The notes below the pieces were generated by a model. It was not told where the DNA came from and made no database searches. It saw only the letters and a list, made by a program, of their open reading frames with translations. From positions 239 to 64,238 of the forward strand of contig CAZZWL010000009.1 of NCBI GenBank assembly GCA_964657755.1: 64,000 nucleotides of DNA. The letters run 5' to 3'. The stretch is from an uncultured Rhodanobacter sp. GTDB lineage: Bacteria > Bacteroidota > Bacteroidia > Cytophagales > Hymenobacteraceae. A program made the position numbers and the translations under genes. The number at the start of each line of letters is the position of its first letter. Position 1 is the first letter of the stretch. Shown in pieces: positions 3,575 to 43,360 of this stretch.

Positions 3575-4480
3575 ATGCTGCTCGATACCAAGCTTCCCGC
3601 GTCCTACCTCTTCCGGGGCATCCGCCCCGACCTGGTGCGGGTGCTGCTGATTTCCAGCTTCTTCCACCTGCTCAAGCTCTCGATTGGGGCCTTTTTGCCG
3701 CCCGTGCCGTTGCAGCTGCCCACCATTCTGGGCAGCCTGATTTCGCTGCTGCTGGCCTTCAAAACCAACCAGTCCTACGAGCGGTGGTGGGAGGCCCGCA
3801 AGGTGTGGGGGGCCATCGTCAACGACTCGCGCACGCTGGTGCTGCAAGCCAGCGGCTTTGTGCCCGATGCCGTGCTGGCCGCCGCCCCGTGGCCCCTGCG
3901 CGCGCTGGCCCACCGCCAGATAGCCTGGTGCTACTGTCTGGGCGAAACCCTGCGCGGCCTCGACCCCACCGCCACCCTCACCAGGTTCCTGCCCCCCGCC
4001 GAGCTAGCGTACACCCATAGTCAAGACAATAAGCCCCTGGCGCTGCTGGCCCTGCACACGGCGCAGCTCAAAAAGCTGTTTGAGCAAGGGGCTCTAAATG
4101 CCTATCAGCAGGTGCAGCTCGATGCCACGCTGGGGCGCCTCTGCGACGCGCTGGGCCAGGCCGAGCGCCTCAAGAGCACGGTGTTTCCGGCCAGCTACCG
4201 GCGGCTGGTGCATTTTTTTATCTACCTGTTTCTGCTCACGCTCTCGCTGGGACTGGTGCAGGCCATTGGGCTGTGGGAAATTCCGGTGCTGCTGACCACC
4301 GCCTCCACCTTCTTCCTGCTCGAGCGCACCGCCCGCCACTTGCAAGACCCCTTCAGCAACCAGCCCACCGATACGCCGGTCACGGCCCTGGCCCGCACCG
4401 TCGAAATTAACCTGCGCCAGCTGCTGCACGAAACCGCCGTGCCCGCGCCGCTCGCCCCCGCGGGCTTCTACTTATTGTGA
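3575..4480 (+). CDS. Bestrophin-family (YneE-like) ion channel
   Basis: SLLLAFKTNQSYERWWEARKVWGAIVNDSR and QAERLKSTVFP motifs. Start placed at ATG 3575. Confidence 0.9.
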   Translation: MLLDTKLPASYLFRGIRPDLVRVLLISSFFHLLKLSIGAFLPPVPLQLPTILGSLISLLLAFKTNQSYERWWEARKVWGAIVNDSRTLVLQASGFVPDAVLAAAPWPLRALAHRQIAWCYCLGETLRGLDPTATLTRFLPPAELAYTHSQDNKPLALLALHTAQLKKLFEQGALNAYQQVQLDATLGRLCDALGQAERLKSTVFPASYRRLVHFFIYLFLLTLSLGLVQAIGLWEIPVLLTTASTFFLLERTARHLQDPFSNQPTDTPVTALARTVEINLRQLLHETAVPAPLAPAGFYLL

Positions 4481-37102: not shown

Positions 37103-37198
37103 ATGTACCGCCACCTGATAAGCCTTTGCAATTCGGATAAAAAGCAGCCAGAAAAGCTGCCCCGGCTCGGTACGTATGCCTGATTTTAGCTTCCGCTA
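37103..37198 (+). CDS. Putative leader peptide 1 (MYRHLISLCNSDKKQPEKLPGSVRMPDFSFR)
   Basis: 31-codon ORF just after the promoter, ending 12 nt before an intrinsic terminator. Confidence 0.5.
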
Positions 37199-37568: not shown

Positions 37569-39098
37569 ATGCGTTTCAACCTCAATTTTCGCGGCAACGC
37601 CGCGCTGGTTCGCAACCACGAAAACGCGCCGGCTTTTGCCCTCACCCCGGCTCAGGAGCTGTACGCCGCCGTAGCGACGGCCGCCCTTAGCGACCAGTTC
37701 TACGAGTCGGCCAACACCCGCCTGGCCCGCCTGCGCGAGTTGGTGGCCCGCAGCGACCCGCAGTTTGTGGTCCGGCTGGCCGTGTATGCCCGCGAGCAGC
37801 TCTACCTGCGTTCGGTGCCGTTGGTGCTGGCCATAGAATTGGCCCGCATTCACCGGGGCGATAACCTGGTGAGCCGCTTAGTGGCGCGGGTGGTGCAGCG
37901 CGCCGACGAAATCCCCGAACTACTGGCCTTTTACGCCCAGGCCAATGGCCGTACCGGGGCGAAAGTCCTGGGTCGGCTTTCCAAGCAGATGCAGCATGGT
38001 CTGGCCCTGGCGTTCAATAAATTCGACGCCTACCAGCTGGCCAAGTACGACCGCGACGGCGCGGCCGTGCGCCTCCGCGATGCCCTGTTCCTGGTGCACC
38101 CCAAGCCCCGCGACGAGGCGCAGCAGGCGGTATTCAATCAGCTCGTGGCTGGCACGCTGCCGGTGCCCTACACCTGGGAAACCGAGCTGTCGGCCGCTGG
38201 GCAGGTGGCCTACCCCTCGCCCGCCGAGCGGCAGGCGGCTCTCACTCGCACTTGGGAAACGCTGGTGGCCAGCCGCCGCCTGGGCTACATGGCCTTGCTG
38301 CGCAACCTGCGCAACTTGCTGGAAGCCAACGTAAGCGCCGATACGCTGGCCCTGGCCGGCGCCACCCTCGCCGATGCCGGCCAGGTGGCCCGCGCCCGGC
38401 AATTGCCCTTCCGCTTCCTGGCCGCCTACCGCGAGGTGTTGGCCCTGGAAGCGGGCGCGGCGCCCCCGGTGCTGGCCGCGCTGGAGGCCGCCATTGGGGC
38501 CAGTGCCCGCAACCTGTGCGGTTTCGGGGCCGACACCCGCGTGGTGGTGGCCTGCGACGTATCGGGCTCGATGCAGCAACCTATTTCGCCGCGCAGCAAA
38601 GTGCTGCTCTACGACGTGGGCCTGGTGCTGGGCATGTTGCTGCAAAGCCGCTGCCAGCACGTAGTTACCGGCATCTTCGGCAACACCTGGAAGCGGGTGG
38701 CGCTGCCCCAGGGCCAGGTGCTGCGCAACGTGCAGGAGCTGTACCGGCGCGAGGGGGAGGTGGGCTACGCCACCAACGGCCACCTTGTGGTGCAGGACCT
38801 GCGCCAACGCCGCGAGGTAGTGGATAAGGTGATGATTTTCACCGATTGCCAGCTCTGGGATAGTGCCGGGCAAGGTAACACGCTGGCTCAGGAATGGGCC
38901 GCCTACCGCGCCAACGTGGCGCCCCAGGCTCGCCTCTACCTCTTTGACCTGGCCGGCCACGGTACCGCCCCGCTCGACGTGCGCGCCGAGCACGGCGTGG
39001 CCCTCATCGCCGGCTGGTCGGATAAAATCTTCGACGTGCTCGCCGCCCTCGAAACGGGGGGTAGCGCGCTCACCGAAATCGAAAAAATTGAGCTGTAA
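37569..39098 (+). CDS. rsr: Ro60/Rsr TROVE-domain RNA-binding protein with vWA domain
   Basis: AVYAREQLYLRS.P, KYDR...VRLRDALFLVHPKP, YTWETELS, LGYMALLRNLRN, vWA MIDAS-like DVSGSM, IFTDCQ. Confidence 0.95.
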   Translation: MRFNLNFRGNAALVRNHENAPAFALTPAQELYAAVATAALSDQFYESANTRLARLRELVARSDPQFVVRLAVYAREQLYLRSVPLVLAIELARIHRGDNLVSRLVARVVQRADEIPELLAFYAQANGRTGAKVLGRLSKQMQHGLALAFNKFDAYQLAKYDRDGAAVRLRDALFLVHPKPRDEAQQAVFNQLVAGTLPVPYTWETELSAAGQVAYPSPAERQAALTRTWETLVASRRLGYMALLRNLRNLLEANVSADTLALAGATLADAGQVARARQLPFRFLAAYREVLALEAGAAPPVLAALEAAIGASARNLCGFGADTRVVVACDVSGSMQQPISPRSKVLLYDVGLVLGMLLQSRCQHVVTGIFGNTWKRVALPQGQVLRNVQELYRREGEVGYATNGHLVVQDLRQRREVVDKVMIFTDCQLWDSAGQGNTLAQEWAAYRANVAPQARLYLFDLAGHGTAPLDVRAEHGVALIAGWSDKIFDVLAALETGGSALTEIEKIEL

Positions 39099-39363: not shown

Positions 39364-39476
39364 TCAGGTGCCGTAGGCTCGGCGTTACTTCGTGGTTGTC
39401 GGCGCAAGCCGTAGGGTTCGAATCCCACTGCTGCTATTTCGGTAGCAGTAGATACGCTGGCCGCTTGTCGCCCTGA
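39364..39476 (+). ncRNA. Y RNA-like unit 1 (permuted class II tRNA mimic, no D arm)
   Basis: GGTGCCGTAG ... CGCTTGTCGCCC terminal element, TACTTCG, variable arm CGGC-gcaa-GCCG, T arm GGGTTCGAATCCC, hairpin-closed acceptor CTGCTGCTA/TAGCAGTAG. Confidence 0.75.
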
Positions 39477-39504: not shown

Positions 39505-39646
39505 AAACCGGGTGCCATCGCGCAGCCATCCTTCGCTCCTTTTTGGGTTGGTCGCGGGTTCGACTCCCGAAGTAGCGTTGCGTAAGTAATGCCGCGTTTG
39601 CGCAGGGGTAGGGCCAGCCCGTGGCTGCCAATTATTGCCCCGGTTT
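39505..39646 (+). ncRNA. Y RNA-like unit 2 (degenerate)
   Basis: Outer stem AAACCGGG/CCCGGTTT, TGCCATCG variant, inner stem GCAGCCA/TGGCTGC, TCCTTCG, T arm CGGGTTCGACTCCCG. Confidence 0.65.
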
Positions 39647-39714: not shown

Positions 39715-39856
39715 CAGCGGGTGCTGTAGGCGGGCCATCCTTCGGAAGTTGTGCCGCAAGGTGTGCAGGTTCAAGTCCTGCCCCAGGGCTTGCCCTAGGT
39801 GGCGAAATTAGTAGACGCGCTCCTCAATAGCCGGCCTGCCGCTTGTTGCCCCGCTG
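39715..39856 (+). ncRNA. Y RNA-like unit 3 (permuted tRNA-Leu-like mimic)
   Basis: CAGCGGG/CCCGCTG outer stem, TCCTTCG, variable arm GCC-gcaa-GGT, T arm GCAGGTTCAAGTCCTGC, then D arm GGTGGCGAAATTAGTAGACGCGC, and 3' CGCTTGTTGCCC. Confidence 0.8.
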
Positions 39857-39865
39857 CTTATTTTT

Positions 39866-40017
39866 AATCTAGTTGGGTGCCGTAGCCCGGCCATACTTCG
39901 ACTCTTAATCGCCAGGTCGCGGGTTTGAATCCCGCTGGCCGCTGCTTTGGTAGCGGCTGTAGCTCAGTCAGGTAGAGCAGGATATGGCGGCTGGGCGCTT
40001 GTTGCCCCAACTAGATT
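39866..40017 (+). ncRNA. Y RNA-like unit 4 (permuted tRNA-Lys(CTT)-like mimic)
   Basis: AATCTAGTTGGG/CCCAACTAGATT outer stem, TGCCGTAG, TACTTCG, GACTCTTAATC anticodon loop, T arm GCGGGTTTGAATCCCGC, acceptor TGGCCGC/GCGGCTG, D arm TAGCTCAGTCAGGTAGAGC, CGCTTGTTGCCC. Confidence 0.85.
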
Positions 40018-40028
40018 TAGCTTACTAC

Positions 40029-40161
40029 TACCGGTGCCGTAGGTGCGCCTTACTTCGTTCGATACGGTGCGGTCGCGGGTTCGATTCCCGTTCGTGGGTC
40101 CGGCCCACGGTAGCTCAGTTGGCTAGAGCACATTCAGTGGTGCGCCGCTTGTTGCCCGGTA
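40029..40161 (+). ncRNA. Y RNA-like unit 5 (permuted class I tRNA mimic)
   Basis: TACCGG/CCGGTA outer stem, TGCCGTAG, TACTTCG, T arm CGGGTTCGATTCCCG, acceptor CGTGGG/CCCACG, D arm TAGCTCAGTTGGCTAGAGC, CGCTTGTTGCCC. Confidence 0.85.
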
Positions 40162-40292: not shown

Positions 40293-41600
40293 ATGGCCAA
40301 CCGCAACAAACCTTTATCGGCTCAGGCGCGCACGGCGCTGCGGGCTGCCGCTGCCCTAGCGCAGCATTTGCCCTGGCAAAAATGGCCGCCGGCCCGCCAG
40401 GTAGCGTTTATCTTTTCACCCGATGCCGCGCAGGTTATCGGCGCCCAGGCCGAGCCGCATTCGGCCCTGGCGCAGCTGCACCGCCACTGCGTGGCCACCC
40501 GCACCGGCAATGAGCAGGGGCGCATCCGCCACTTCCTCAGCCAGCTTATCAAGTGCCGAACCCGGCTGCTGGACCGCCCCGAGCTGGCTCCGGCCCTGGC
40601 GCACCTGGGCCTGCACTACGCCCACCGGGTGCGCGAAGTAGCCAGCTGGCAGCCGCGCTCCAAAAACGTTTTTTACCAGCTCGACAGCTTAATTCGCCAC
40701 CTTTTTGACCAGTTTGGCGATGTGCCGGGTTGGGTGCTCAATGGCTGGGGTAGGGCGCCCGAGCAGCCCACGGGCGTCGACCTCACGCTGCTTCTTTTGC
40801 ACCTGGGTAGGGGCCAGGCGCTGCGGAGTTTCGCGGGTTTGCCCGTGCCGCTCACCAAGCGCTTGGAGCACGGCTTGCGGCAGGCCCCGGACGGCTGCAC
40901 GTTCCAAGAAGCCTACCGCTACGCCCAACTGGCGGCCCGCGACGCAACCGAGTGGCTGGGCGTAGTGCTCGACTCGCGGCTGGGTCGCGAGCCCATCGGC
41001 CCCGACGATGCGCTGTGGCTGGCGGTGCTCGACCTGTTTCGGGCCGAGCCGGAGGTCGATGCCTGGCAATTTGGCCCGGTGTGCGACTGGATTCACTTCC
41101 GCCGCCGCGTGGGCAGCCTGGCCGAGCCGGCGCAGCCCAACTTCTCGCTGCGGGGCCGCAGCCTGGCCTCGCTGCTGGCGCACACCGCGCGCTGGCATCG
41201 CACGCTAAACCCAGCCCGGCGCAACCCGCGCTTTCAGGAGCTGCTGGCGGCCGTGTGGCCGGGGCTGGCGGTGCCCGATTTTGCGGGCGGCGACGGCGAG
41301 TGGGTCCACATCCGGCAGCTGCGCAGCTACCCCGAATTGCTCGACGAAGGCCGCCACATGCACCACTGCGTGGCCTCCTACGTGCACCAGTGCAAGCGTG
41401 GGCGGCGGGGTATCTATTCACTCACCTTCAACGGCGGCCGGATGCTGACCCTCGAAGTCACGCCCGAATACCAGCTGGTGCAGGTCCGTGGCAAGTACAA
41501 CCGCCGCCCTACCCCCCTCGAGCGCCACTGGCTTGCCCACTGGCTCCGAAAGGAGCGCCTCACGGCCGCCGACCGGGTGTGGGAGGGCGTTTTCGACTAA
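40293..41600 (+). CDS. PcfJ-like domain protein
   Basis: C-terminal L..EG..MHHCVASY...IYSL...LTLEV...QVRGKYN motif characteristic of PcfJ-like proteins. Confidence 0.85.
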   Translation: MANRNKPLSAQARTALRAAAALAQHLPWQKWPPARQVAFIFSPDAAQVIGAQAEPHSALAQLHRHCVATRTGNEQGRIRHFLSQLIKCRTRLLDRPELAPALAHLGLHYAHRVREVASWQPRSKNVFYQLDSLIRHLFDQFGDVPGWVLNGWGRAPEQPTGVDLTLLLLHLGRGQALRSFAGLPVPLTKRLEHGLRQAPDGCTFQEAYRYAQLAARDATEWLGVVLDSRLGREPIGPDDALWLAVLDLFRAEPEVDAWQFGPVCDWIHFRRRVGSLAEPAQPNFSLRGRSLASLLAHTARWHRTLNPARRNPRFQELLAAVWPGLAVPDFAGGDGEWVHIRQLRSYPELLDEGRHMHHCVASYVHQCKRGRRGIYSLTFNGGRMLTLEVTPEYQLVQVRGKYNRRPTPLERHWLAHWLRKERLTAADRVWEGVFD

Positions 41601-41616
41601 AAACCACCACCCACCT

Positions 41617-41678
41617 GCGGTGCCGTAGCGCCGTCTGCCATCGCTTGAAAACCGACCGCTGGCGCGCCTCTTCTCTGC
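41617..41678 (+). ncRNA. Short Y-like unit 6 (no T or D arm)
   Basis: GGTGCCGTAG, inner stem GCGCC/GGCGC, and a loop containing CTTGAAAACC (Ser-TGA anticodon-loop-like). The 3' motif is degenerate. Confidence 0.45.
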
Positions 41679-41682
41679 TTTT

Positions 41683-41780
41683 ATTCAAGTTGCCGGATGC
41701 CGTAGGCCCGCGTTCCTTCGACCTGTCACGTCGCCTTTTGGCCCGACGCGGGCCGCCTGTCGCTCCGGCAATTTTTGAAT
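41683..41780 (+). ncRNA. Short Y-like unit 7 (no T or D arm)
   Basis: TTGCCGGA/TCCGGCAA outer stem, TGCCGTAG, perfect inner stem GGCCCGCGT/ACGCGGGCC, TCCTTCG, 3' CGCCTGTCGC. Confidence 0.65.
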
Positions 41781-41794
41781 TAGGCTGATTAAAA

Positions 41795-41908
41795 AGCCGC
41801 TGGAACGTCATTCCGAGCTTGTCGAGGAATCTCGCTCGCTTCGTTGAACGATACCCGAACGGCCTGGGCGAGATTCCTCGGCAAGCTCGGAATGACGTTC
41901 CAGCGGCT
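41795..41908. repeat. REP/MITE-like inverted repeat (GTCATTCCGAG type)
   Basis: 41-bp arms AGCCGCTGGAACGTCATTCCGAGCTTGTCGAGGAATCTCGC / GCGAGATTCCTCGGCAAGCTCGGAATGACGTTCCAGCGGCT with one G-U pair. Confidence 0.8.
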
Positions 41909-41959
41909 GTCCGCATGCCAATTCATCATTCCAAATACCCCATTCTAAATCTCAAACTA

Positions 41960-43360
41960 ATGGCTTCTATTTTACGGGGCAATGACTTGCGGCAGCTCGG
42001 GTTTCCCGAGGGCCGCGCTATCGGGCTGGCGCTGGCGCAGTTGCAGCGCAAAGAACACAAGCGCCTGACCCAGGCCGACCAGCTCGAATTGCTGAAAGCA
42101 ATTCTGGCGACGCCCACCGATTTTCTTACCGACCTGGCCTGGAGCCACACCGCCGCCGCGCTGCTACCCCCCGTGTCGCGGCACATCGAGCTGGTGGCGC
42201 GCAAGCCCTACGTCACCTTCGGCGCCGAACACATCGACGCCGGGGCGGTGCACCAGATGGAAACCGCCATGAAGCTGCCCGTGACCGTGGCCGGCGCCCT
42301 CATGCCCGACGCCCACCACGGCTACGGCCTGCCCATCGGCGGCGTGCTGGCCACCGATAACGCCGTGATTCCCTACGCCGTGGGCGTGGACATTGGCTGC
42401 CGCATGGCCCTCTCGGTGTATGACCTGCCGGCCAAGTACCTCACCCAGCGCGTGCAGGAAGTGCGCCACCTGCTGCTCGAAAACACCCGTTTCGGTAGCG
42501 GCCGCAGCTGGGAGCGGGGCCAGCGCCTCGACCACGCCGTGCTGCACAGCGACACGTTCCAGGCCATTCCGTTTCTGAAAAACAAGCTCGACCGCGCCGC
42601 TGAGCAGGTGGGCACGTCGGGCTCGGGCAACCACTTCGTGGAGTTCGGGATTGTGGAAATCATCGACCCAGCCAACGAGTTGGCCCTACCCCCCGGTCAG
42701 TACGTGGGCGTGCTCTCGCACTCGGGCTCGCGGGGGCTGGGCGCGGGCATTGCCGAGCACTATACCAAGCTCGCCAAAGACGTGTGCCAGCTGCCCGCCG
42801 AGGCGCAAAACCTGGCCTGGCTGGGCCTCGACACCGAGGCCGGCCAGGAATACTGGGCCGCCATGAACCTGGCCGGCGACTACGCCTCGGCTTGCCACGA
42901 CCAGATTCACCGTCGGCTAGCGCGCGCCTTGGGCGAAAAGCCGCTGGCGAAAGTGGAAAACCACCACAACTTCGCCTGGAAGGAGCGCCTGGCCGATGGC
43001 CGCGAGGTCATCACGCACCGCAAGGGCGCTACCCCGGCCGGCGCGGGCGTGCTCGGCATTATTCCCGGCTCCATGACGGCCCCCGGCTTCATTGTGCGGG
43101 GTAGGGGCGCGGCGGCGTCGCTGGCTTCGGCCTCGCACGGGGCGGGCCGGCTGCTGTCGCGCACCCGCGCCAAGGCCGAAATCGGCGAAGCCGACCTACG
43201 CCGGCAGCTTGCCGACCACGGCGTGGAGCTGCTCGGCGGTGGCCTCGACGAAGCCCCACAGGCCTACAAAGACATCCACACCGTGATGGCCAGCCAGCGC
43301 GAATTAGTGGATGTGCTCGGCTCCTTCACGCCCAGAATCGTGCGGATGGATGGTGCTTGA
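41960..43360 (+). CDS. rtcB: RtcB family RNA ligase with N-terminal extension
   Basis: MPDAHHGYGLPIGG, VDIGC, GSGNHF, SHSGSRG, NHHNF, HRKGA, IPGSM, SHGAG, DEAPQAYK. Start placed at ATG 41960. Confidence 0.96.
   Translation: MASILRGNDLRQLGFPEGRAIGLALAQLQRKEHKRLTQADQLELLKAILATPTDFLTDLAWSHTAAALLPPVSRHIELVARKPYVTFGAEHIDAGAVHQMETAMKLPVTVAGALMPDAHHGYGLPIGGVLATDNAVIPYAVGVDIGCRMALSVYDLPAKYLTQRVQEVRHLLLENTRFGSGRSWERGQRLDHAVLHSDTFQAIPFLKNKLDRAAEQVGTSGSGNHFVEFGIVEIIDPANELALPPGQYVGVLSHSGSRGLGAGIAEHYTKLAKDVCQLPAEAQNLAWLGLDTEAGQEYWAAMNLAGDYASACHDQIHRRLARALGEKPLAKVENHHNFAWKERLADGREVITHRKGATPAGAGVLGIIPGSMTAPGFIVRGRGAAASLASASHGAGRLLSRTRAKAEIGEADLRRQLADHGVELLGGGLDEAPQAYKDIHTVMASQRELVDVLGSFTPRIVRMDGA

Follow-up and report, generated by a model that had tools for sequence, protein, structure and literature searches.

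In a 64,000-nucleotide (nt) stretch of a Hymenobacter genome (deposited as an uncultured Rhodanobacter sp., GCA_964657755.1, contig CAZZWL010000009.1, positions 239 to 64,238; hereafter the window), the element at 39866-40017 on the + strand is the fourth unit of a Y RNA array lying downstream of rsr, which encodes the Ro60 orthologue, and upstream of rtcB, which encodes an RNA ligase. We are confident that unit 4 specifies a YrlA-class Y RNA whose tRNA-like module is a complete, circularly permuted cloverleaf, anticodon arm included. It is possible, although we hold this well short of firmly, that the RNA serves as a target mimic (a competitive inhibitor, decoy or bait) for RNases directed at anticodon loops, as part of an RNA-damage response involving Ro60 and RtcB. 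Structure and function taken jointly form the best explanation that we can offer, and we give it an even chance; the functional part, judged on its own, is the more tentative of the two.

What the tRNA-like domain does in bacterial Y RNAs has been a question in the field since 2014. As the YrlA whose structure has been solved, that of Salmonella, lacks an anticodon loop, earlier ideas involving anticodon nucleases could only be indirect. An anticodon-arm mimic provides a testable handle, since binding and cutting by anticodon-loop-directed enzymes, and resealing by RtcB, can be assayed on it. Hundreds of related units, from Bacteroidota and from phage Ro60 loci, have a mimic with an anticodon arm, and the loop is often an exact copy of a tRNA loop.

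The limits of unit 4 are exactly those of a 9-bp outer stem, AATCTAGTT/AACTAGATT, in which the 5′ strand AAUCUAGUU (39866-39874) pairs with the 3′ strand AACUAGAUU (40009-40017), as judged from both the sequence and the minimum free energy (MFE) fold. Such unit-specific outer stems are general across units, with a mean of 5.5 contiguous pairs compared to 1.2 in the control. Next comes the lower Y stem, whose 5′ strand (39875-39885) carries the conserved motif GGGUGCCGUAG and is the presumed contact for Ro60 (Rsr); here G39875-G39877 and G39879-C39880 pair with 40004-40008, and U39878 is bulged. The sequence GCCGUAG (G-N-C-G-U-A-G) is a variant, kept in related units, that occupies the site of the GNCGAAN0-1G motif found in the terminal stem of YrlAs (PMC4201824). 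In the upper Y stem, CCCGGCC (39886-39892) pairs with GGCUGGG (39989-39995), and a junction linker, AUACUU (39893-39898), includes in our alignments the YUAY motif that is conserved in YrlAs (PMC4201824). The returning strand (39982-40008) consists of the linker AUAU(GGC), the upper-stem strand, a conserved internal loop, CGCUUGUU, and GCCCC (40004-40008). Outer, lower and upper stems together make up the Y stem, which bears the conserved GUGCCGUAG...CGCUUGUUGCCCC module.

Within the tRNA-like module, the Y stem is inserted between tRNA positions 28 and 29, rejoining the fold at C29 G30 A31 (39899-39901). These nucleotides open the anticodon-arm mimic, a hairpin at 39899-39911 (CGA, loop CTCTTAA at 39902-39908, TCG at 39909-39911) in which the stem CGA/UCG corresponds to tRNA positions 29-31/39-41 and the loop reads C32-U33-C34-U35-U36-A37-A38, with the triplet CUU at 39904-39906. 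C42 and C43 (39912-39913) then pair with G28 and G27 (39981 and 39980), the proximal anticodon stem at 39980-39981; since the order is broken within the 5′ strand of the anticodon stem, that stem is made of 2 + 3 bp around a three-way junction. The variable region AGGUC (39914-39918), whose C48 is available for a Levitt pair with G15, leads into the T arm, GCGGG-UUUGAAU-CCCGC (39919-39935), which has U56 in place of the canonical C56. The acceptor equivalent is closed: it is a 10-bp hairpin, UGGCCGCUGC-UUUG-GUAGCGGCUG (39936-39959), containing the acceptor 3′ strand TGGCCGC (39936-39942) and 5′ strand GCGGCTG (39953-39959), with no free 3′ end, no CCA and no discriminator. U8 A9 (TA, 39960-39961), the D arm and A26 fill 39960-39979; the D arm, GCUC-AGUCAGGUA-GAGC (in DNA GCTC-AGTCAGGTA-GAGC, 39962-39978), has A14, G15, G18, G19 and A21 complete. 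The nucleotides of the L-shape (U8, A14, G15/C48, G18, G19 and U54/A58) are present, U56 being the one exception.

The loop, variable region, T arm, acceptor strands and D arm that had been listed in the first-pass annotation, made from the sequence alone, are all where it put them, and its picture of a tRNA re-joined at the acceptor ends is borne out as far as the permutation goes. The break, however, lies not beside the anticodon, as that picture had it, but inside the 5′ strand of the anticodon stem, and TGCTTTGGTA, taken there for a linker, is not one, as its TGC and GTA add 3 bp to give the 10-bp hairpin with the tetraloop TTTG.

ARAGORN makes no tRNA call on the native sequence of unit 4. 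With the Y stem removed and the order restored, it calls tRNA-Lys(ctt) with all four arms paired, including two G-U pairs in the acceptor stem; the de-permuted form has the 5-bp anticodon stem and 7-nt loop with a Lys anticodon expected of a canonical tRNA-Lys, and the native unit departs from one in having neither a contiguous 5′-to-3′ cloverleaf nor a free acceptor. Could unit 4 then be a cryptic permuted tRNA gene, in which the Y stem is excised, RtcB circularizes the product, and RNase P and 3′ processing yield tRNA-Lys(CUU)? Its topology is that of a permuted tRNA gene, rtcB adjoins, the genome is without a tRNA-Lys(CUU), and in M. smegmatis RNase P cuts the YrlA, to which CCA is added. 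We nonetheless consider this highly improbable: the acceptor is a continuous 10-bp helix with a tetraloop, in which the equivalent of position 73 is base-paired, the triplet varies from one species to the next, with stop-type and A34 forms among the variants, the body has no Lys-specific features, and an excision junction motif was not seen.

The assignment to YrlA, also made at first pass, is upheld. The Rfam YrlA model (RF02553) matches unit 4 with 36.3 bits (E=5.8e-6), short of the gathering threshold of 69 bits; it matches both unit 4 and unit 5 at E ~1e-5, under the gathering score, and has no positions for the hairpin, where the alignment is forced. Unit 4 starts 768 nt past rsr on the same strand, that is, within the 4 kb of rsr expected of a YrlA, and it has T and D stem-loops with tRNA invariants around a closed acceptor-like stem-loop, as seen in the cmscan alignment, in the covariation of helices 5-7 and in the de-permuted cloverleaf.

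Is the hairpin real? Our covariance model, R1, trained on 21 genus orthologues, detects 385 units across 81 sources, namely the window plus 80 related rsr loci, of which nearly all are from Bacteroidota. In 150 model-aligned units, the three hairpin pairs (helix 3) are 92.7% paired and all show double changes, with stem variants that include GCA/UGC, GCG/CGC, CGA/UCG and UCG/CGA; the proximal pairs 27-28:42-43 (helix 4) are 97.6% paired and both covary; and slid controls give 40-49%. The surrounding helices behave likewise: the lower Y stem (helix 1) is 99.7% paired with compensatory changes, the upper Y stem (helix 2) is 96% paired with double changes in 6 of 7 pairs, the T arm (helix 5) is 99.5% paired, and all 10 pairs of the acceptor equivalent (helix 6) covary. 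An exchange of A-U for G-C in the hairpin is likewise seen in a MAFFT alignment of genus orthologues that was not fitted to the model. In a positional scan, 97 of 260 related units have a 3-bp/7-nt hairpin whose end falls exactly 7 nt short of the T stem (2 nt and then the 5-nt variable region); for most other offsets and loop sizes the share is about 2-15%. Nor is the loop buried, in agreement with the first-pass proposal: in the single-sequence ensemble its nucleotides have unpaired probabilities of 0.68-0.98, and in the comparative structure it is a hairpin loop.

Many YrlAs have a 'V' stem-loop upstream of the T stem-loop, and the YrlA stem-loop that begins at YUAY has been equated with the tRNA variable arm (Chen et al., 2014), so the hairpin might be this variable-arm analogue, with its likeness to an anticodon loop a coincidence. 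We find this very improbable. The hairpin lies 5′ of C42C43, which pair with G27G28, and is followed by a separate 5-nt variable region, AGGUC, with C48; its loop has 7 nt with Y32, U33 and R37; it stands exactly 7 nt ahead of the T stem; and class-II-like units such as unit 3 have a distinct variable arm directly 5′ of the T stem.

A different fold was also considered and rejected. Rfam tRNA matches 39887-39943 with 25.2 bits (cut-off 29) as a tRNA without a D arm, using the Y-stem strand CCGGCCA as acceptor 5′ strand; since orthologues with other acceptors (e.g., CGGAAGC) cannot form it and the Y stem covaries, we discount this fold. In two relatives, ARAGORN makes 'tRNA-Arg/Gln' calls that appear to reflect a structure of this type. 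Units without the hairpin are common within the same arrays, for example with CUUCGGGUC immediately 5′ of the T arm.

How far is unit 4 a tRNA-Lys? With the loop masked, its body is 72% identical to the genome's own tRNA-Lys(TTT), of which there are two genes; a tRNA-Lys(CTT) gene was not found in this genome by tRNA gene search, nor in five relatives, four of them assembled in 1-4 contigs. The T and D arms are the generic, family-wide YrlA ones. The 'near-complete tRNA-Lys(CTT)' of the first-pass annotation therefore stands as a complete cloverleaf but not as to Lys identity or origin: unit 4 is Lys by its loop only.

The two tRNA-Lys(TTT) genes lie in tandem, 65 nt apart (G000:C212:3141-3357), and R1 matches the T arm of copy 1 plus the D arm of copy 2 with 50 bits (model positions 26-110), a type of false positive about which Chen et al. 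(2014) warned. Elsewhere in the window's genome R1 matches only tandem tRNA genes. Descent from the tRNA-Lys(TTT) pair was weighed as an origin for unit 4 and rejected, as the loop-masked body resembles tRNA-Gly more closely and has generic YrlA T and D arms. The related notion that unit 4 is a functionless relic, the 3′ part of one tRNA gene and the 5′ part of the next, draws on the same match. It is effectively refuted by conservation and covariation, as units recur throughout the 80 related rsr loci, every helix covaries, the Y stem included, and the body is not closest to tRNA-Lys.

The first-pass annotation held that an anticodon loop not conserved in orthologous units would refute its proposal. 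We surveyed the orthologous unit in 47 Hymenobacter-clade loci and mapped its triplet on an Rsr tree of the 47 taxa. The loop architecture is conserved; the CUU triplet is not, and read strictly this is the refuting outcome that the annotation had named. UUU occurs in 20 of the 47 and CUU in 8, making 28 of 47 Lys-type, and the others have UCG, GUU, UUG, UCU, UUC, GCG, ACG, GUG and more, resembling Arg, Gln, Glu, His, Asn, Gly and Leu types. Parsimony requires at least 24 triplet changes. UUU, present in all major clades, is likely the ancestral triplet, and we take the CUU of unit 4 to be a recent one-base variant on a replaced hairpin cassette. What is conserved, on these alignments, is the architecture of an anticodon loop, with Lys-type loops predominating.

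Change is concentrated in the hairpin. Between the members of 13 close pairs, 11 of 39 triplet positions differ (28%), compared with 151 of 1437 positions outside the triplet (10.5%; Fisher p=0.002). In two close pairs the entire hairpin has been replaced while the rest of the unit is 93-96% identical: one is a block swap of GCA-CUUUUAA-UGC and CGA-UUUUGAU-UCG (L068:5681-5808 and L069:5551-5678), and the other, in which the 13-nt hairpin is again replaced as a block, is unit 4 itself compared with L031:5304-5438. The nearest relative's unit 4 hairpin is GCA-CUUUUAU-UGC, and 6 of the 14 differences from it fall in the 13-nt hairpin and an adjoining 1-nt indel. This pattern suggests that hairpins turn over by cassette-like exchange and not by point mutation.

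The loops follow the rules of anticodon loops. We de-permuted 99 units, of which 77 passed a pairing check and ARAGORN called 78 as tRNAs. Among the 77 units that parsed cleanly, 74 have a pyrimidine at position 32, 73 have U at position 33 and 70 have a purine at position 37, with positions 34-36 free. Seven of 41 distinct loops match real anticodon loops of the window's genome over all 7 nt (column shuffle mean 1.8, p about 0.0015), namely Lys CUUUUAA, Asn CUGUUAA, Pro UUUGGGA and UUCGGGA, His UUGUGAU, Glu UUUUCAU and Gln UUUUGAU. Loops with G37 nearly all have G36 (Pro-/Leu-type triplets), like most G37-bearing tRNAs of this genome, and positions 32 and 38 switch with the triplet (CUNNNAA vs UUNNNAU).

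These rules bear on the main rival to a target mimic, namely that the hairpin simply completes a tRNA-shaped body for a partner that reads architecture (e.g., PNPase, RtcB or a processing enzyme), so that the triplet is irrelevant and drifts. We think this possible but on the whole unlikely. It fits the constraint on U33 and A37 beside a variability at 34-36 like that of covarying stem positions, the occurrence of unnatural triplets, the family-wide T and D arms and the many array units without a hairpin. It does not account for the excess of full 7-nt matches to real tRNA loops over shuffled ones, for the covariation of position 37 with 36 as in real tRNAs, for the switching of 32 and 38 with the triplet, or for triplet change about three times faster than that of the remainder of the unit in close pairs.

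tRNA-Lys is a classic target of anticodon nucleases (PrrC and PARIS). How might a target mimic work? Processing would first cut the unit from a polycistronic transcript at its outer stem, and Rsr would bind the Y stem through GUGCCGUAG/CGCUUGUUGCCCC. The L-shaped module lacks a free acceptor end and so presumably cannot be aminoacylated; it would thus expose its anticodon arm to anticodon-loop-reading proteins. After a nick in the loop, the two pieces would still be joined through the Y stem (about 21 bp), and RtcB, encoded nearby, could reseal the RNA. This proposal extends that of Hughes et al. (2020; PMC7790460), in which YrlA's tRNA-like domain was put forward as a possible competitive inhibitor of an anticodon nuclease. 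The decoy or sensor idea of the first-pass annotation gains some indirect support from the mimicry of 7-nt loops, the fast turnover of triplets and the occurrence of such units in phages.

Several observations weigh against a target mimic of tRNA-Lys. The MFE fold (-72.8 kcal/mol, compared with -66.4 for the cloverleaf) does not contain the 3-bp hairpin, whose outermost pair has a probability of 0.015 and whose two inner pairs have about 0.26-0.28, and RNAalifold likewise leaves it out; the helix is so short that we treat energy-based folding as uninformative for it, and support for the predicted hairpin is comparative only. The loop-masked body is 81% identical to the genome's tRNA-Gly(TCC), more than to tRNA-Lys(TTT), and the tRNA to be mimicked, tRNA-Lys(CTT), is the one that this genome lacks. 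Entropy at positions 34-36 (1.2-1.45 bits) about equals that at covarying stem positions, and some triplets have no natural counterpart, with A34 in 11 of the 77 units and UUA read by ARAGORN as a stop anticodon; such variability and such triplets fit neutral drift as well as an arms race. The Salmonella YrlA escaped cleavage by the RecA-dependent anticodon nuclease. Finally, an anticodon nuclease was not identified in or near the locus, and NCBIfam scans of neighboring genes and promoter and terminator scans gave nothing that points to a partner nuclease.

It is also conceivable that the loop recruits or titrates an aminoacyl-tRNA synthetase or an anticodon-loop modification enzyme at Ro60. 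Tethering of Ro60 to effectors is an established role of Y RNAs (the effector in D. radiodurans being PNPase), the Salmonella YrlA is modified by TruB and DusA, and known loop determinants are present (U36-A37 in unit 4, G36-G37 in Pro-/Leu-type units). An essential, conserved partner would however predict a fixed triplet, which is hard to reconcile with so many changes in one genus, and the genome has no tRNA-Lys(CUU); we rate this explanation as improbable.

Extended to whole arrays, the target-mimic reading becomes bolder and, in our judgment, rather unlikely in this full form: the Y RNA arrays of Bacteroidota and several phages would be panels of Ro60-tethered anticodon-arm decoys or baits. 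Each unit would show the loop of a tRNA under nuclease attack, the types seen being Lys, Pro, Asn, Arg, Gln, Glu, His and Leu; nicked decoys, held by the Y stem, would be resealed by the co-encoded RtcB or passed to Ro60/PNPase; and an arms race with toxins and phages would explain the fast turnover of triplets and cassettes.

The closest named relative of the host is Hymenobacter sp. UV11 (Rsr 95% identical). rsr (37569-39098, +) encodes TROVE and Ro60 vWA domains, and its product is the presumed protein partner of the Y RNAs. It is separated from a PcfJ-like protein gene (40293-41600, +) by 1.2 kb holding five tandem Y-RNA-like units, with rtcB (41819-43360, +) downstream in the same orientation as the array. 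An open reading frame (ORF) scan of the gap found none of at least 80 amino acids, and none that overlaps unit 4. R1 scores are 42 bits for unit 1 (39366-39474), 47 for unit 2 (39510-39641), 58 for unit 3 (39719-39852), 141 for unit 4 (39875-40008, +) and 92 for unit 5 (40032-40158). Unit 4 is, on the evidence of this arrangement, one of five paralogous Y RNAs predicted to be transcribed with rsr and rtcB. In the 80 related loci, for which 3 kb was taken beyond the gene, units are nearly all on the rsr strand, and rtcB is present in the flanks of at least 56, almost always downstream of the array.

Other features of the array deserve mention. Between the PcfJ-like gene and rtcB, 41621-41766 contains two short Y-like units that open with TGCCGTAG; the second (41695-41766; R1 38.6 bits) is without a T or D arm and may therefore be a YrlB-like partner. 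A PcfJ-like gene occurs in 26 of the 80 rsr loci (L031-L110), 9 times downstream of the Y array and 17 times directly upstream of rsr. In unit 3, the variable arm CCGCAAGGTGT and D arm TGGCGAAATTAGTAGACGC are those of the genome's tRNA-Leu(CAG), and a 3-bp/7-nt hairpin, GCT-CCTCAAT-AGC (39819-39831), is placed after the D arm, so that the Y stem appears to leave from the opposite strand of the anticodon stem compared to unit 4; the loop differs by one base in the nearest relative (C to T at 39825). Another type of unit, seen in relatives (L034:6702-6830; L037 from 5424; L077 from 6331), carries TCTGACTGTTAATCAGA, 17 nt identical to the entire anticodon arm of this genome's tRNA-Asn(GTT), with TCTGGTGAAA before it and a T arm after it, and is seemingly not permuted as unit 4 is. 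Upstream of rsr, the first small ORF (37103-37183, MYRHLISLCNSDKKQPEKLPRLGTYA) encodes a peptide kept in at least 10 relatives (consensus MY..LS.RNSDKxQPERLP.LGT); its Lys, Gln, Pro, Glu, Leu and Arg codons correspond to tRNA identities imitated by Y units, which may be a coincidence.

Related arrays are also found upstream of Ro60 genes in Xanthomonas phage Bolivar, Caulobacter phage CcrColossus and Gordonia phage VanLee. These hold 3-7 units, some with hairpins, namely CGA-CUGUUAA-UCG in Bolivar and CcrColossus and GC-CUUCUAA-GC in VanLee; other phage units have none, like the Salmonella RNA. There is a practical side to this, since such units are carried as tRNA genes in public phage records: GenBank labels part of a VanLee unit (L146:2129-2261) tRNA-Arg(tct), and part of a CcrColossus unit (L145:1630-1788) is labeled tRNA-Gln. 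Both are probably mis-annotated YrlA-type mimics. In Bacteroides phage crAss001, 3′ of the TROVE gene, a 144-nt element (L147:3977-4120) matches Rfam tRNA with 46.6 bits and has a normal acceptor 5′ strand, D arm, T arm and acceptor 3′ strand, with the Y-RNA motif GGTGTAGAATAGAGTTACTTC in place of the anticodon arm; it looks like a tRNA-ordered, non-permuted chimera that would bind Ro, and a second similar element lies near 4290-4370.

How does unit 4 compare with known systems? The nearest are the YrlAs themselves (RF02553; S. Typhimurium YrlA, PDB 6CU1; Chen et al., 2014; Wang et al., 2018). Both are encoded in an rsr-Y RNA-rtcB locus and share a Ro-binding stem formed from the 5′ and 3′ ends, near-identical T and D arms, a closed acceptor-like stem-loop, YUAY and the circularly permuted order. 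The solved Salmonella RNA 'lacks the anticodon loop' (10.1101/312249), whereas unit 4 adds the 3-bp/7-nt hairpin and so has a full 5-bp anticodon stem and a canonical loop, a departure from the YrlA norm that the first-pass annotation had rightly remarked on. Unit 4 also differs in belonging to a set of five to seven tandem paralogues with differing tRNA-like features, in the 10-bp length of its acceptor hairpin and in its score under the Rfam cut-off. We found no description of anticodon-loop mimicry in YrlAs in the literature, leaving aside the supplement of Chen et al. (2014) and the review by Sim and Wolin (2018). The YrlA class is itself known, and what appears to be new relative to characterized members is the complete anticodon arm and the array of diverse paralogues. 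Deinococcus radiodurans Yrn1, which tethers Rsr to PNPase, is likewise a Ro60-bound Y RNA with a T-arm-like stem-loop, and has been modeled with a potential 5-bp 'anticodon arm', but it differs from unit 4 in its 6-nt loop, its doubtful D arm and the way its arms are ordered with respect to the ends.

The permuted tRNA genes of the red alga Cyanidioschyzon merolae and the two-piece tmRNA genes of alpha-proteobacteria are processed to a free, chargeable acceptor. Like unit 4, these genes encode the 3′ part of the tRNA fold ahead of its 5′ part, with the acceptor ends next to each other in the transcript, and unit 4 matches the Cyanidioschyzon-type topology in having the 3′ portion first and acceptor ends joined by a short spacer. 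In unit 4, however, the acceptor is closed and the break is filled by a Ro-binding stem, and nothing suggests maturation to a tRNA.

Phages have their own countermeasures to anticodon nucleases: T4 Pnk and Rnl repair the tRNA-Lys cut by PrrC, the T5 tRNA-Lys acts against PARIS, and other phage-encoded tRNAs resist cleavage or replace cleaved host tRNAs. With these, unit 4 shares a Lys-type loop, an RNA ligase (RtcB) in the locus and the occurrence of related units in phages. Whereas those countermeasures consist of chargeable tRNAs and repair enzymes, unit 4 would be a non-chargeable mimic, presumably bound to Ro60.

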